Shown: positions 19,837 to 61,966, numbered from the stretch's first letter. The stretch: 64,000 bases of DNA from Thermoplasmatota archaeon (GCA_041601615.1 JBFIHX010000001.1:192001-256000); one strand, 5' to 3'. Notes: a model not told the origin generated them from the sequence alone. Translations and numbers: made by a program.

Positions 19837-20014
19837 GGTTCTAACCTGCCATTGTAGGCGTGTTGGCATAAAGAGGCAAATATATAATTATTTCGGCACC
19901 ATGGGGACACCAAAGGAAGTTAGATGGATATGAAACATGCCGGATTGCACCTCATTGGCGGCTAAACGTGTAACCTGAAAGATTGCTGTCGCTATGTCTT
20001 GACAATCGCATCGC

Positions 20015-20281
20015 TTCACGCCCCCCGAGGGTTGGCAGTTCACGGTCGACGGCGCCCCCGTGGTGCCTTCAAGCTAGATTCCGTAGGGCCCGGCCCCGGC
20101 CCCGCCCGTCCCCGTCTGCGGTGTCCCGAACCCGGTTCACGGCGGCGACATGTGCATCAAGGGCGTCGGCTTGACTCTGAGCCAGGACTTCGAGATTTTC
20201 TCGCACGTCACGTTCCACTTCACGCCCCCCGAAGGCTGGCAATTCACCAACGATGGCGCCCCCATCGTCCCTTCCAGCTAG
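20015..20281 (+). pseudogene. two orphan 3'-terminal fragments of the same gene family
   Basis: 20015-20077 reads FTPPEGWQFTVDGAPVVPSS*; 20087-20281 ends ...FTPPEGWQFTNDGAPIVPSS*. Each is bounded upstream by an in-frame stop. Confidence 0.7.
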
Positions 20282-20736
20282 AATCCTGACGGGGCCAGCG
20301 TGCCGCCGGCATCGGATCTGCTGCGTTCCGCGCCCTCAGGCACGGCCAGGGCAAGTAGATTGGCGACCAAATCCGTCAAGTGGTTCCGGTCCACCGGTTT
20401 TTCCAGCACGCCATCCAGCGGCGTCTCCTCAGCGCGAGCAGACGCCGGCAACTGCGTGAAGCCACTGGAAAGCACAAACCGCGTCGACGCCGATAGGGGC
20501 CTCGATCGCCGCACCAATTCCATACCGTCTATGCCAGGTAGTCGGTAATCCGTGATGACCACGCTGGGAGAACGCTCCGCTAGGGCTGCCAAACAAGCCT
20601 CTGCGGAAGCAAAAGCGACCACTTCCACCGAGGGGAATGCTTGGTCCAACACATGCGAGAGAAGGAACCGGGAGCTTTCGCAATCGTCTACGATGAAAAT
20701 GCAGGAGCGCCGAAATCCTTGGCCAGGGGCTTGCAT
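20278..20736 (-). CDS. stand-alone CheY-like response regulator
   Basis: IVDD, ITDYRLPGIDG, LSSG, EKP. Confidence 0.85.
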   Translation of the reverse strand: MQAPGQGFRRSCIFIVDDCESSRFLLSHVLDQAFPSVEVVAFASAEACLAALAERSPSVVITDYRLPGIDGMELVRRSRPLSASTRFVLSSGFTQLPASARAEETPLDGVLEKPVDRNHLTDLVANLLALAVPEGAERSRSDAGGTLAPSGF

Positions 20737-42581: not shown

Positions 42582-43592
42582 ATGGACCCGCGCCCATTCC
42601 ACACCGTGTCCCGCGTCGTCGTTACCTGGACCCCGCAAGCCGGGGAACGCGAGGTCGTCGAAGAAAATCTTGGCGACGACGCAGAATGGGCCACGGACGG
42701 CGCGGACGCATGCAAAGCAGAGGGACTCCTGATGTTCTGGCCGCGCCAGGAACTTCGCGCGCTGGGCCTCGAATGGAACGAACTCGCTGCGGGATGGGTA
42801 AAACTTGCAACCGCCGGCGCCAACCACGTCGGCTGGCACCCCGGCCCACCCATGCCTGTCCTCACCACCCCCGGCGCCACGGCCCCAGCCATCGCCGAAT
42901 ACATCCTCGCCAACATTCTCTCCTGGACACGAGGACTCACCGCACACACGCGAAGCATCCGTGGCGGCCACTTTGAACAAGGAGCGCCCATACGCGGACT
43001 CTCCGAATTGCGCATCGGCCTCGTGGGCTACGGCGGCATCGGGCAAGAAACCGCCCGCATCTTGCACTTGCTTGGAGCAACCGTGGAAGCAGTCAGCCGC
43101 AGCGGCAAAACCACCTCCGAAGCAAGAAAGAACATCAGCCACCTTGCCACCATCCAGGAACTCCCCGCCATGGCCGGCCGCGTGGATGTGCTCGTGCTGT
43201 GCCTGCCGCTGCACAAAGACACCGTCGGCCTCGTAGATGCTGCCCTACTCGAAGCATTCGCAGACGGACTCCTTGTCAATGTGTCCCGAGGCCCCGTAGT
43301 CGACGAAGACGCCCTCTACACTTGGCTCCACACAGACAAAACCCGCCGCGCCGCCGCACTCGACGTATGGTGGCGCTACCCCCGCGGCATCGGCTGGCCC
43401 TTCCGACGCCCCTTCGACCAATTGCCCAACATCACCATGACCCCCCACAACAGCCCCAACATCGCAGGCTTCCGACTCGGCATGCTCGAGGCAGCATGCA
43501 AAGATATCCGCGCGCTGCTTGACGGCGGAGACCTTGCACATGTGGCAGACCCCGAGGCACACCGGTTGGAGATTGAAGGGGATGGGCGCTGA
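42582..43592 (+). CDS. D-isomer-specific 2-hydroxyacid dehydrogenase family protein
   Basis: GLVGYGGIG, NVSRGPVVDEDAL, AALDVWW, MTPHNS. Confidence 0.9.
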   Translation: MDPRPFHTVSRVVVTWTPQAGEREVVEENLGDDAEWATDGADACKAEGLLMFWPRQELRALGLEWNELAAGWVKLATAGANHVGWHPGPPMPVLTTPGATAPAIAEYILANILSWTRGLTAHTRSIRGGHFEQGAPIRGLSELRIGLVGYGGIGQETARILHLLGATVEAVSRSGKTTSEARKNISHLATIQELPAMAGRVDVLVLCLPLHKDTVGLVDAALLEAFADGLLVNVSRGPVVDEDALYTWLHTDKTRRAAALDVWWRYPRGIGWPFRRPFDQLPNITMTPHNSPNIAGFRLGMLEAACKDIRALLDGGDLAHVADPEAHRLEIEGDGR

Positions 43593-43605: not shown

Positions 43606-43897
43606 CTACAACCCCACCATCTTCATCGACATCTCTGCCACTCGACAGGCGTAGCCCCATCCATTCGACCTTCAAAAAGATCGACCATTTTGGGCGGCCC
43701 TCGCCCCGCTCGACCACCCGGGCAACGTCAACCTGCCATCTTCATCGCCATCTCTGCCACTCGACAGGCGTAGCCCCATCCATTCGACCTTCAAAAAGAT
43801 CGACCATTTTGGGCGGCCCTCGCTCCGCTCGACCACCCGGGCAACGTCAACCTGCCATCTTCATCGCCATTTCTGCGACCCGACACGCATACCCCCA
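43606..43897 (-). repeat. 119-bp period tandem array: two extra copies of the gap 3' end, each with a 68-bp spacer
   Basis: CCATCTTCATCG at 43617, 43736 and 43855; spacers 43660-43727 and 43779-43846 differ at one base. Confidence 0.95.
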
Positions 43898-44848
43898 TTC
43901 ATTGTCGTACCATGCGAGTACCTTGACCATGTCGTCATTGAGCTGGAGTGCCGGCAGGTCCACCACCGCGGACCTTGGATCATGCGTGAAGTCTACGGAC
44001 ACCAGCGGCGCCTCCTCGATACCCAGAATGCCCTCCATTGGCCCAAACGCGGCGGCCCGGAACGCTTCCTCTAGATCCTCCTTGCTTGGCGATCGTTTCA
44101 GATGGGCCGTGAGGTCAATGACGCTCACATCCGCCGTCGGTACGCGCAGAGATTGGCCCGTGATGCGGCCGTCCAAGTGGGGCAATATCTTGCCGATGGC
44201 TGCTGCGGCGCCGGTCTTTGTTGGAATCATGCTCAATAGGCTTCCACGGGCCCGGCGCAGGTCCTTGTGCGGTGCATCTGCGACGTGCTGGTCGTTGGTT
44301 ACCGCGTGCACCGTGGTCATCATGCCGCGATGGACTCCAAACGCATCGTCGAGGACCTTCAGAACGGGTGCTAGGCAATTTGTGGTGCAACTGGCGTTGC
44401 TGACCAAGTAGTGTTTGCTCGGGTCGTACTGGTCATCGTTGACGCCCCGCACCACCATGAGGTCTGTGTCTCCTGGCGCGGTGAGCAAAACTCGGTCCGC
44501 CCCTGCGTCTAGGTGCTTTTGCAGTGCTGGCCGCGTGGTGTGCCTGCCGCTTGCCTCGATCACCACTTGGGCGCCGAGATCTTGCCAGGGCAACTGGGCG
44601 GGATCAGGAATTTGCAGCACGCGTAGTCGGTCGCCGCCAATGACAAGCCCGTCGTCCGTTACTTCCACGGAGTCTGGGTAGCGGCCGTGCACGGAGTCAT
44701 AGCGAGTCAAATGCGCTAGAACTTCCTTGTCGGTCAGGTCGTTGACCGCCACGAAATCCACTGGACCCATTTGCTGCAACGCTCTCGTAACGAGTCGCCC
44801 GATGCGCCCAAAGCCGTTGATGCCGATGCGGGGCCCCTCGCCATTCAT
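43847..44848 (-). CDS. gap: type I (bacterial-type) glyceraldehyde-3-phosphate dehydrogenase
   Basis: GINGFGRIGR, SNASCTTNCLAP, TGAA, RVPT, WYDNEWGY. Confidence 0.95.
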   Translation of the reverse strand: MNGEGPRIGINGFGRIGRLVTRALQQMGPVDFVAVNDLTDKEVLAHLTRYDSVHGRYPDSVEVTDDGLVIGGDRLRVLQIPDPAQLPWQDLGAQVVIEASGRHTTRPALQKHLDAGADRVLLTAPGDTDLMVVRGVNDDQYDPSKHYLVSNASCTTNCLAPVLKVLDDAFGVHRGMMTTVHAVTNDQHVADAPHKDLRRARGSLLSMIPTKTGAAAAIGKILPHLDGRITGQSLRVPTADVSVIDLTAHLKRSPSKEDLEEAFRAAAFGPMEGILGIEEAPLVSVDFTHDPRSAVVDLPALQLNDDMVKVLAWYDNEWGYACRVAEMAMKMAG

Positions 44849-59176: not shown

Positions 59177-61966
59177 TTAGCCCTCCTGTTTGCGCCATTG
59201 CACCGTCTCGCCTTTGCGGCCCCAGAGTAGCCACGCGCCAACACCGATGCCCACCGCAGCGAGTCCACTGAGACTCCCCCATAGCCACGCGAGGCTCCGC
59301 TGCTTCACTGCAACGTCTTGGAGGGGTTCCGGCGCAGGTTTGGGCGCTGCTTCGGCCGTGAGCGGGTCCGTGCCGGCATCCAATTCGTCCTTGTCGCGTA
59401 TCCCGTCGCCGTCCGTATCGGCATTCTTTGGATCCGTGCCCAGAATTGCCTCCTGCACATCGGTGAGTCCATCGCCGTCGTCGTCTAGGTCGGCGTTGTC
59501 GCCGATGCCGTCGCCGTCCGTGTCCAGTTGTTCGTTGGGGTCCAGCGGGAACGCGTCGTCCCTGTTGATTACGCCGTCGTCATCCGAGTCGCCCAACGGT
59601 TCTTGGGATTCACAGGCATCACCTATGCCGTCGCCGTCCGTATCCTCTTGGCCAGGATCGGGGTCATCGGGGCACACGTCGATGCCGTCCTTGATTCCAT
59701 CCTGGTCCCGGTCGCCTCCCGACGCAAGCTCCGCTGGTCGGATGTATCGAGTCATCGTCCAGGAGACGCCTGCGTTGTCGGTTGCCGTCAAGCGGACGCG
59801 GTACGTTGCATCTGGATCGGGGAACGTGTGCTGCACTTCTCTCTCGGCGGAGTCCACCACGTCAAATCGAGAGGGATCCGCTTCGTCGTCAAAGCGCCAT
59901 GCGACCGCCGCTACCTCCACGTCGTCGCTGCTGGCATCCTGAAACCGTATGGTGCCCGGCGCGGCAGCATCCGCAAAGACCGACATTTGGGCCGTGGGTG
60001 CGTCGTTGTCCACGACGATGTTGCCACCCGGTGGCGCCCACTTGGTTTGGGCTCCTCGATCATCCGTGACCGTGAGCCGGAGCGCGTAGCTTCCTTTGGC
60101 CGCGTATGCGTGCTTGGGTTGCGGGTCGTCGCTGCGGCTGCCATCGCCAAAGTCCCATGCCCACGCCACGACCTTGCCGTCCATGTCTTGAGCGTCTACG
60201 ATGAACTTCACCGGAATCCGCGTGGCCGGGGGCGGGTCAAATCCTGCCGCGTCCACTGTTGGCGCACGGTTTTGCACCACCACAATCCGAGTCTGCTCCG
60301 CATAACCTCGATTGGAATCCTCGACGTACAACGTGACCTCATACACACCGGGAACTTTGTACAGGTGCGACAGGGTTGCGGGTCCCTCGGCGCGGCCGTT
60401 GCCCACGTCCCATTTGCGCACCACCAATTCGTGGTCGCCCTTGGCGCTCGTGTCCTGGAACGTTGCATCCTCGTACGTGCGCACGGTGGTCGGCGCCTCG
60501 AACGACGCCATGGGAGGGAGCCAGAGAATGTCGAACGAGTGTGTGACCTGATCCGAGCCCCCGTAGCCGTCGTCCACGGTCAGGGTGACAACGTAGGTGC
60601 CGCGTTCGCCGTACGCATGCTCGACGATGCGTTCGATGCTCGTGGTGCCGTCACCAAAATCCCAGAAGTAGGATAGCTCGTCGCCGTCGGGATCCGTGCT
60701 ACTTTCTGCCGATACGCGCACGGGATTGTCCACCGTGTCGCTGTCTTGCAAGATGGTGATGACGGCGGTGGGCGGGTCGTTGGTGGTCGCCACGGTCTTC
60801 GAGATGGAACCAGTGGCGCCATGGTTGTCCGTGACGGTGACCGAAGCCTCGTAGGCGCCCTTCTGCATGTAGCGGTGCTGAATGGTTGGGCCGCCTAGGA
60901 TGCTTGTCCCATCGCCAAAGTCCCACTTGTACACCGAGCGCAACGTACCATCGGGGTCCGTGGAACCCTTGGCGTCAAAGGTCACCGCTTGACCAATTTC
61001 CGGCACTTCGGGCGAGGTGACAATCTTGGCAACGGGTGGACGGTTGGCGGCGACGATATCCTGGCATTCGGTTCCAGTCGCGCCGTCCGCTTCGGTGAGT
61101 GTCAGGCAAACCGTGTATGTGCCAGAACGAGCATAAGCGTGTGTTGCGGTCGTGGCTGCCGGCGCTTGAAGAATCGTTCCGTCGCCAAAATCCCAGGTCC
61201 TTTGGACAATGGCAAATCCCTGAAGGTTGGTCTCGTCCGTGAAGACCACATCGTTCAAACTCAATGGTTCCTCGGGCGCATACGAGAAGGATGGCCCAAG
61301 AATCAGCTCCGGGTCACCGCTGTCCATCACGACAATGTACTGAATTTGGGTCTGGCCACTGAAGCGCTGGTAGGAGCCGGCCAACTCAAAAGTGCCTCCG
61401 GGGCCGCCCTCGGTATCCACCTTGTGGTACCCGATGAAGGCAAAGGGGCCATTCTCGTTCAGAGAGCCATACACGCAAAACGGCTCCCCGGTGTTCGCGG
61501 CACCCGATTGAGGATTGGTCGTCAGGTAGTCCGATTCGTACACCGCCAAGTCATCGCCTGCGCCGTTGGAAACGACCTCTGCAAACCTGCCCCGGAACCA
61601 GCCCGCTTTGCCAAGGCTCACCACGCTCTGGGAATCAAACTCCCCAGTTCCGATGCCCAAAATGGTGGTGGCATAGGGACTCCCTTCCACTTCCCGTGGG
61701 TCCGTGAACTGGTTGTCGCCACCTGTGAAATCGAAGTCCTGGTAGCGCTGCGACATGTAGCCCACTTCCAAGTAGGCGTCCGTCGCCAACGCCTCGACAC
61801 CCATGATGTCAGCACGGGGGCTGCGCCCGTTGGACAACTCCACCGTCGTCGGCACGCACGCATACCCCGTGAACTCAAATGATTCCGGAAACGAGTACGC
61901 TTCCGACCAGTCCGCAGACGCCGTGGAAAGCAGCGCCAACGCCGCGAGGGCCAGCAGAGGCGCCAT
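59177..61966 (-). CDS. surface protein with multiple PKD domains, TSP type-3-like repeats and C-terminal TM anchor
   Basis: Repeated WDFGDG; DTDGDGIGD repeats; C-terminal third paralogous to the neighbouring gene. Confidence 0.9.

Follow-up and report, generated by a model that had tools for sequence, protein, structure and literature searches.

The e14 element and phage 21 integrate at the 3′ end of the icd gene of E. coli and bring a replacement end with them, and in fungal mitochondria, mobile endonuclease ORFs carry a foreign C-terminus of the gene that they target, as at atp6 of Allomyces. Short tandem units have precedents of another kind, in the microhomology-mediated template switching known as FoSTeS/MMBIR and in the mycobacterial minisatellites called MIRUs. 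In archaea, integrated elements of Thaumarchaeota occupy the 3′-distal part of protein genes, supply a replacement stop codon, and form arrays by re-use of the site, according to the available part of the published account (PMC6563490). Fungal mitochondrial double-hairpin elements (DHEs) are described, in the available portion of a report that cites Paquin et al. 2000, as small, GC-rich, mostly intergenic, near-identical across species, and potentially mobile, with no known enzyme or mechanism (PMC10085805). Prokaryotic repeats of the REP/BIME and MITE types are characterized in the accessible text of 3 further sources as short, structured, multi-copy, and non-autonomous sequences that lie in intergenic DNA behind genes (PMC3184786, PMC3733652, PMC2759123).

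The locus that we compare with these systems lies in the window, which is the whole 64,000-nt stretch of DNA that was analyzed, from contig C1 of a Thermoplasmatota archaeon genome (G000; GCA_041601615.1, JBFIHX010000001.1:192001-256000). Two 119-bp units stand between the live gap gene and an untranslated, probably original gap end that adjoins a convergent dehydrogenase gene. Each unit consists of the last 17 gap codons (the tail, T), 3 nt, and an element of about 65 nt that we call E. In the features below, A1 and A2 denote the 2 codon versions found in the left part of the tail and B1 and B2 those of its right end.

42582-43592, + strand: D-2-hydroxyacid-dehydrogenase-like gene (ORF), convergent with gap and its conserved right-hand neighbor; syntenic in the sister species G002, with 73% amino-acid identity.
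43606-43659, − strand: T3, distal echo WGYACRVAEMSMKMVGL and stop, with A2 codons and the B2 end (in-register comparison); its stop codon (43606-43608) is 13 nt from the stop of the dehydrogenase ORF.
43660-43727, − strand: spacer 2, consisting of CGT, E2, and tail, unlike spacer 1 at 1 of 68 nt (match to covariance model R1).
43728-43778, − strand: T2, middle untranslated echo WGYACRVAEMAMKMAG and stop, with A2 codons and the B1 end (in-register comparison); its A2-to-B1 junction is present in contigs at about 1x depth.
43779-43846, − strand: spacer 1, consisting of CGT (3 nt), E1 (about 43785-43843, 59 nt), and the 6-nt tail AATGGA (43779-43784), placed by the R1 match, hairpins, and covariation.
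43847-43897, − strand: T1, live gap tail WGYACRVAEMAMKMAG and stop, with A1 codons and the B1 end, echoed by both copies (in-register comparison).
43847-44848, − strand: gap, type I glyceraldehyde-3-phosphate dehydrogenase, live gene of 333 aa ending in NEWGYACRVAEMAMKMAG and stop (ORF list and translation).

Tandem Repeats Finder returns 43617-43903 as a single array with a period of 119, 2.4 copies, 94% matches, no indels, and a score of 511, and together with the in-register comparison this confirms the preliminary description of extra copies of the last ~17 gap codons at 119-bp spacing behind the stop. The array consists of head-to-tail copies of one unit, as any plain tandem repeat does; the label minisatellite describes this form and leaves the codon-wise mosaic and the dispersed family of the spacers unaccounted for. 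Over WGYACRVAE, both echoes differ from the gene at the 6 codons that had been named (gene/echoes: GGG/GGC, TAT/TAC, GCG/GCC, CGG/CGA, GTC/GTG, and GAA/GAG), with all 6 changes synonymous and at third positions, and T2 and T3 are identical to each other. From ATG GCG onward T2 equals the gene, and past this switch T3 is unlike both (GCG/TCG, GCA/GTG, GGT/GGG, and TGA/TTG). The mosaic noticed earlier is exact, with the gene being left-A1/right-B1, the middle copy A2/B1, and the distal copy A2/B2, and the 2 switches of allele type fall in the same 4-nt interval. An apparent seventh difference (GAA to GGA, or NE/NG) belongs to the 3′ tail of E itself; a copy of E at another locus ends in GGTCGGATGGAA, which places the true beginning of the echo at TGG.

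A synonymous mosaic of this kind requires recombination with a diverged functional allele and does not require a site-specific enzyme. Two switches within a single 4-nt interval are what one crossover with a circular or tandem donor would produce of necessity; 2 independent crossovers would share the interval by chance in about 1 in 6 to 10 cases, as we estimate from 10 informative sites. We tentatively read the gap stretch as a stack of two gene-end cassettes that are non-autonomous and carried by host recombination.

A mosaic could also come from the computer, if the assembler had concatenated strain variants of the gap end, and the genome is indeed a metagenome bin in which the whole array is bridged by no single contig among the public-run assemblies. 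Those assemblies, from 4 runs of one study that is probably the source of the genome and whose support is therefore not independent, argue against this: in run X1 the piece shared by the two units (43630-43751) has a depth of 44.2 between flanks of 25.1 and 21.3, about twice the single-copy level, and the junction that only the middle copy has (43722-43778) is at 19.2, or about 1x. Shared unit and junction are both present in 2 further runs, the junction being seen at a depth of 3.3 versus 4.1 for the flanks in X2 and being covered in X3 by a 149-nt piece (43630-43778), where position 43705 reads as E1. The same architecture moreover recurs at dozens of loci, and relatives that were assembled independently have it too. 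On the strength of the contig depths and of this recurrence, we take the gap array to be real and regard an assembly artefact as barely credible. The public-run contigs of this study, none of which bridges the array, showed no circular, element-free, or one-unit allele of gap, at the level of contigs rather than reads.

The spacer recurs next to other gene ends, as the preliminary description had anticipated for an inserted sequence, and does so at 4 other loci of the genome with E<1e-9. An nhmmer profile finds 14 copies of E in the genome (E<=3.4e-4), and covariance model R1 finds 24, together with 15 in the sister species G002 and 1 in G001. Within the window, R1 matches the two gap copies only, in spacer 1 at 43775-43848 (81.2 bits, E=1.3e-19) and in spacer 2 at 43656-43729 (79.1 bits). 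Copies are present in 19 of the 24 genomes of the same family (f1) and in 0 of 6 from the neighboring families f2 and f3; among genomes from other families of the class, 1 of 10 gives a weak match. E is a non-autonomous structured repeat family that is confined to one family of uncultured Thermoplasmatota.

E1 and E2 are identical at 73 of 74 positions, and the nearest other copy of E reaches 87% (62/71, in G002), or 85% within G000. By this comparison the duplication of the gap unit appears recent, and E would not have reached gap by jumping recently from another locus of the genome. The copy at C5:134620 of G000, considered as a source on account of its similar ATGGA tail, was rejected at 79% identity. 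An 18-nt motif of E had 4 matches in a viral contig collection, none of them an E by R1 (best 11.9 bits, E=0.14). The same motif gave at least 118 matches in species genomes, mostly chance hits in unrelated bacteria, and this search was discarded as the pattern is too short for 596 Gb.

In an alignment of 15 copies, the consensus of E consists of 2 hairpins and a conserved AAAAYGATCGA linker. Two pairs of hairpin 2 switch from U-A (8 sequences) to C-G (5 sequences), paired cells amount to 96.4% as against 38-46% with slid partner columns, and the observed covariation score was reached in 0 of 500 shuffles. The folding energy of the hairpins does not exceed that of shuffled sequence (z = -0.02 as DNA and -1.15 as RNA), so it is the covariation that argues for the structure. 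One U-G pair is kept in 13 of the 15 sequences, which fits a role of the sense strand as RNA or single-stranded DNA. Rfam 15 gave no match at the gathering score (best 17.2 bits, with a cut-off of 40), and no tRNA lies within the window. In hairpin 1 (the region of 43810-43835 in the window), most copies of E have CGAG opposite CGAG, an arrangement that would pair as tandem G-A/A-G between Watson-Crick pairs, and 3 copies have fully complementary stems in its place. We presume that the CGAG/CGAG motif could be a protein-binding, kink-turn-like feature.

The copies of E are dispersed and have no coding capacity, and 18 of the 24 R1 matches lie behind stops, each following a same-strand ORF of at least 100 codons that ends within 140 nt. 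An echo of the last codons of that ORF lies at -13 to +29 nt from the model end in 14 of the 18, and these 14 rows, which overlap within arrays and include 2 echoes of only 4 codons, contain 30 synonymous and 4 replacement codon differences. On its 5′ side E comes after the live gene end, and its 3′ hairpin is nearly always in direct contact with a displaced copy of this end; the end concerned can belong to a protein gene (3′ end) or to a tRNA gene (5′ end with promoter). Protein genes with this layout include those for H+-pyrophosphatase (H+-PPase), a membrane protein (27 codons), an arginase-like protein (26 codons), and dihydrolipoamide dehydrogenase, as well as polB, with 3 units of 113 bp. 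The echoed tail differs by locus and ranges from about 9 to 35 codons; at the nucleotide level, duplicated tails measure about 25 to more than 100 bp. Units span 99-158 bp, and the idea of a fixed unit length acting as a ruler was rejected for this reason.

Among tRNA genes, a tRNA-Ser gene has a 109-bp array of 3 E matches at its 5′ end, and a tRNA-Leu gene has 2 (the tRNA arrays are at C2:114747-115092 and C14:35605-35808 of G000). E is antisense to the tRNA at these loci, and what is echoed is the first ~10 nt of the tRNA with the upstream (promoter) region, as is also the case in G002 (locus L160); the live tRNA therefore uses the element-side copy. At NucS (C4:57768-63752 of G000, locus L163), the tail and a complete E are followed by a 5.9-kb island, a second hairpin 2, and the displaced tail echo, in whose 24 codons 7 differences are synonymous and none is a replacement. 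The island is lower in GC and encodes a TPR protein, a winged-helix regulator, and unknown secreted, Gly-rich, and lipoprotein-like ORFs, with no recombinase among the 8 ORFs scanned. A cassette can apparently carry cargo, as here.

The NucS locus bears on a model in the line of the preliminary description, which had a 119-bp unit with a foreign gap terminus integrating twice at the E-M codon junction: a larger element carrying a replacement end would have integrated at the 3′ end of gap, perhaps twice, and later lost its cargo, leaving attL, attP-like, and attR copies with E as the end of the element. The gap mosaic fits such an arrangement, with 3 tails flanking 2 units, an empty site in G002, and both switches in one 4-nt interval; the NucS island sits between E and a second hairpin 2 beside a displaced tail, and integrated elements with replacement stops and arrays from site re-use in 3′-distal regions of protein genes are on record for archaea, in the available part of that account (PMC6563490). 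The enzyme and the fixed site that the model calls for did not turn up. There is no integrase in the window, just as had been reported, and the 3 tyrosine-recombinase matches in the genome (PF00589) are on contigs C16 (a XerA-like recombinase), C13, and C8, with none on C1 and none among the NucS island ORFs scanned. The same E accompanies gap, H+-PPase, polB, NucS, the arginase-like gene, and tRNA 5′ ends, so that the tail cannot be a fixed attP, and the tails are long and variable, with no conserved core at the crossover. The tails are exactly 68 bp apart in both units, so that on this model either the same deletion would have happened twice or a unit would have been duplicated afterward, and none of the 4 viral-contig matches is an E by R1. 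We consider an integrase scar improbable, and a site-specific att/integrase mechanism at the E-M junction is not supported. Since tails and their lengths vary among loci and the polB junctions differ between species, homologous recombination within the gene tail is a better account than a fixed core site.

Other enzymes of mobile DNA are likewise missing from the 93% complete genome, in which neither a Y1 (HUH) transposase (Y1_Tnp) nor a reverse transcriptase (RVT_1) was found. The IS200/IS605 palindrome-associated type is a poor match for E, there being no Y1_Tnp match and long duplications being present. A diversity-generating retroelement would come with RVT_1 and adenine-confined changes, and the changes at gap are G/C, T/C, G/C, G/A, C/G, and A/G. 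Retro-copying of a transcript 3′ end was set aside for lack of a reverse transcriptase.

Displaced gene ends extend beyond those linked to E. A protein-level scan of stop-to-stop ORFs of at least 150 codons (n = 7658, many of them spurious) found a downstream echo at a score of at least 7 in 44 ORFs and in 0 of the reverse-complement control; at a score of 6 the figures were 50 and 8. The 44 merged rows, which include wrong-frame ORFs, low-complexity runs, and one ribosomal P-protein paralogue, hold 174 synonymous and 44 replacement codon differences, distributed 45:37:182 over the codon positions, and the earlier argument that duplication with drift cannot give a synonymous bias is borne out by these counts across the genome. 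The AspRS pair is almost fully recoded (16 synonymous differences and 1 replacement in 22 codons), and one pair has the multi-base synonymous changes CTC/TTG and CGC/AGG; such pairs can only be diverged functional alleles. Some echoes lie behind unrelated hairpins of a second family, CCAAGGGGCGGAGCCCCTTGG and its variants, so the layout is not tied to the sequence of E.

This second family occupies the same position as E between live and displaced gene ends, and is seen in G000 at C5:35058, C5:112877, C5:116251, C7:90026, C1:421679, C22:14731, and C6:12226. The window itself holds another recoded echo at 20014-20286 (+ strand), where a gene ending in FTPPEGWQFTVDGAPVVPSS and stop is repeated 204 nt downstream as FTPPEGWQFTNDGAPIVPSS and stop, with about 7 synonymous and 2 replacement differences as read by eye and a spacer that is not E. 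A 105/120-bp periodicity at 59380-59660 (− strand) is unrelated and consists of coding, calcium-binding DxDxDGxxD repeats (thrombospondin type 3-like).

Relatives of the genome allow the gap site to be compared with and without E. Orthologues of gap are present in 21 of 40 related genomes (G001 was left out of the site comparison, as its contig ends inside gap at residue 267), and nhmmer found no significant E at the gap loci of these 21 relatives, the sole match having E=0.57. In the sister species G002, gap ends in LALQMAVESPRKLRA and stop; the same dehydrogenase gene adjoins it directly, and neither E nor an echo is present. The preliminary description had looked to an empty site ending in MSMKMVGL and stop as support for integration. 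The locus is too diverged to show that the native end had this form, or for the native tail to be read from G002, with amino-acid identities of 77.7% for gap and 73.0% for the dehydrogenase. T3 is probably the displaced original end, since its place, with 13 nt to the stop of the dehydrogenase gene, is the one that the gap end takes in the sister species. In G002 the site may be empty through loss; either E arrived at gap with the echo, or it was lost from G002.

Of the informative third positions, G002 matches A1 at 4 and A2 at 1, a distribution that would weakly fit A1 as resident and A2 as donor, weakly because synonymous sites between the species are near saturation. Replacement of the whole gap gene by a xenologue was considered, as gap is 78% identical to G002 and 3 other genes are 92-96% identical, and was rejected because the neighboring dehydrogenase is equally diverged, at 73%. 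A metagenome scan for close relatives of gap gave matches of at most 55% identity, through the conserved WYDNEWGY motif, and no strain-level alleles.

At other loci the sister species share E. The E junction lies at the same codon in G000 and G002 in the H+-PPase and membrane-protein genes, and the 2 tails of each are identical or nearly so within a genome and about 25% different between genomes; orthologous copies of E are about 93-95% alike by eye count, next to 3′ UTR sequence that is unalignable. Tails that are alike within and unlike between genomes, together with a conserved E, indicate continuing gene conversion between the neighboring tails and selection on E. In polB and one other gene the junction positions differ between the 2 species; on our reading, the polB echo of G002 departs from its gene by 7 synonymous changes and no replacement. 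Echoes of the AspRS tail occur in 4 of the 6 genomes compared (G000, G001, G005, and G007, at loci L164 and L172-L176; not in G002 or G006), with different lengths and, in G007, twice in tandem. TTG, CCx, and AGG of the displaced copy in G000 recur in the G002 gene, which is empty, so that the displaced copy looks like the native one. The E family, its pairing with live and displaced coding-like gene ends, the stacking of units, homogenization within genomes, and presence or absence at gap within the genus are established.

Two observations stand beside these. AspRS is a single conserved gene end that has been struck repeatedly across genomes. At a gene ending in KKGGKISLGF and stop (C9:15030 of G000 and locus L157 of G002), the echo starts at the same codon in both species, with E as the spacer in G002 and a different, partly E-like sequence of 68 nt in G000.

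The preservation of E between species whose neutral sites are unalignable is also what one would see if E were a conserved 3′-UTR or terminator structure and the echoes were by-products kept alike by gene conversion. Such a regulatory role would agree with the covariation and the conserved G-U pair, with the co-orientation of E and the upstream gene in 18 of 24 matches, and with a T-run in the loop of hairpin 2, given that T-runs act as archaeal terminators. It is hard to reconcile with the 2 tRNA genes, where E is antisense and upstream of the 5′ end, and it leaves the echoes, their synonymous recoding, and the presence at gap in G000 versus absence in G002 without explanation. We hold this reading to be very improbable.

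A process at the replication fork is the main rival to the cassette, and one that we regard as unlikely. An E-type hairpin would stall or unseat the polymerase, the nascent strand would switch at microhomology and re-copy the tail, and later allelic recombination with element-free strains would give the mosaic; E would then be a resident 3′-UTR or terminator-like structure. A number of observations agree with template switching: in every copy the junction coincides exactly with the base of hairpin 2, tail and target share microhomology (AATGGA versus AATGAA at gap, GCTCG at the arginase-like gene), and the length of echo and unit varies. Several unrelated hairpin families have the same layout, and no transposase, reverse transcriptase, or nearby integrase was found in the genome. 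Orthologous copies of E are old at their loci, the polB junctions differ between species, and the U-G pair suits a function at the RNA level, on the sense strand. A back-slip within a single molecule would, however, leave the element after the last tail, and the native flank has no E there at gap, the tRNA-Ser array, or the arginase-like and membrane-protein genes. The lack of E at gap in G002 would mean that E came with the echo unless it was lost there, and pairs of the AspRS type, with 16 of 22 codons synonymously different, are too diverged for ordinary allelic recombination.

For the cassette, the recombination route and the donor are what we infer. The copy of the gene tail would serve as a homology arm for host homologous recombination, and a unit of tail, 3-nt linker, and E, supplied by a diverged allele in tandem or circular form, would be placed into the resident tail. 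Crossovers within the tail between an allele with the element and one without it should yield one hybrid tail that is resident on the left and donor on the right, one that is donor on the left and resident on the right, and, in the middle, a copy that is donor throughout. The units could then be stacked by unequal crossover or by integrating a second time, and frequent gene conversion between neighboring tails would keep their cores alike, with the outer edges retaining differences that are allelic and hence synonymous.

Several points count against the cassette. The search produced no donor, the nearest other E being those in G002 and G000 already given. At AspRS the whole displaced copy looks native, not just its 3′ part, and this is easier to explain by a complete new end that was imported and joined illegitimately than by a crossover within the tail. 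The route gives no account of the first duplication at a locus, and neither does any rival for the first tail-E-tail arrangement. That several unrelated hairpin families share the layout points to a structure-driven process rather than to an element peculiar to E, and the conservation of orthologous E could reflect a host function without mobility. A bolder form of the idea is that E is enzyme-free selfish DNA, a hairpin element of ~60 nt that uses a copy of a gene end as its homing arm, overwrites gene ends (3′ in protein genes, 5′ with the promoter in tRNA genes) across diverged lineages, stacks relic ends, and occasionally takes up kilobase cargo as at NucS; this we put forward as possible and doubtful.

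If the cassette reading is true, imported copies with synonymous recoding, tied to a tiny hairpin element that has no enzyme of its own, routinely overwrite the ends of housekeeping genes in these archaea. This would be a new route of horizontal exchange on a sub-gene scale, a source of false pseudogene and small-ORF calls behind genes, and a natural marker of recombination between strains. With a defined 119-bp unit, a covariance model of E, and orthologous sites both filled and empty, the system is a testable one, and it could be used to study the movement of hairpin elements that lack a transposase, a matter that is also open for the mitochondrial double-hairpin elements.

In full-text literature, with subscription journals outside the scope, no account came up in which archaeal or bacterial hairpin elements are coupled to displaced, recoded gene ends, and E with its displaced ends looks like an undescribed way of gene-end replacement. 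It overlaps with each of several known systems in part. Like FoSTeS/MMBIR products and the MIRUs, the arrays have tandem units of ~100 bp, microhomology at the junctions, and copy numbers that change by unequal exchange, but an element-free last copy, gain at an empty site, and purely synonymous differences are not predicted by either. The mobile ORFs of the Allomyces atp6 type share the order of gene, foreign recoded tail, insert, and displaced native tail, and spread by repair recombination with a diverged donor; they differ in carrying a homing endonuclease gene, whereas no nuclease gene lies in or next to the gap unit.

REP/BIME and MITE-type repeats, so far as the available text of their descriptions goes, are similarly short, structured, multi-copy, and intergenic just behind genes, and E resembles MITEs in its many dispersed non-coding copies (24 in G000 and 15 in G002). 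It differs in having neither terminal inverted repeats nor a short target duplication of fixed length, being built of 2 internal hairpins, base to base, and in its hallmark, a long and variable duplication of the gene end. The DHEs come close in form, with 2 adjacent hairpins in a unit of ~60 nt that is multi-copy and mostly intergenic, a resemblance only, as E is archaeal and the DHEs are mitochondrial with no sequence relation to it; displaced, recoded gene ends are not reported for DHEs in the available part of PMC10085805. With the integrative elements that target 3′ ends, as the accessible accounts present them, the locus shares a live gene that ends in imported sequence with its own stop, an original end left downstream as an untranslated direct repeat, and the formation of arrays. 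Those elements are kilobases long, encode an integrase, and use one fixed target, whereas the unit here is 119 bp long, has no recombinase gene, and belongs to a family that pairs with many tails of variable length.
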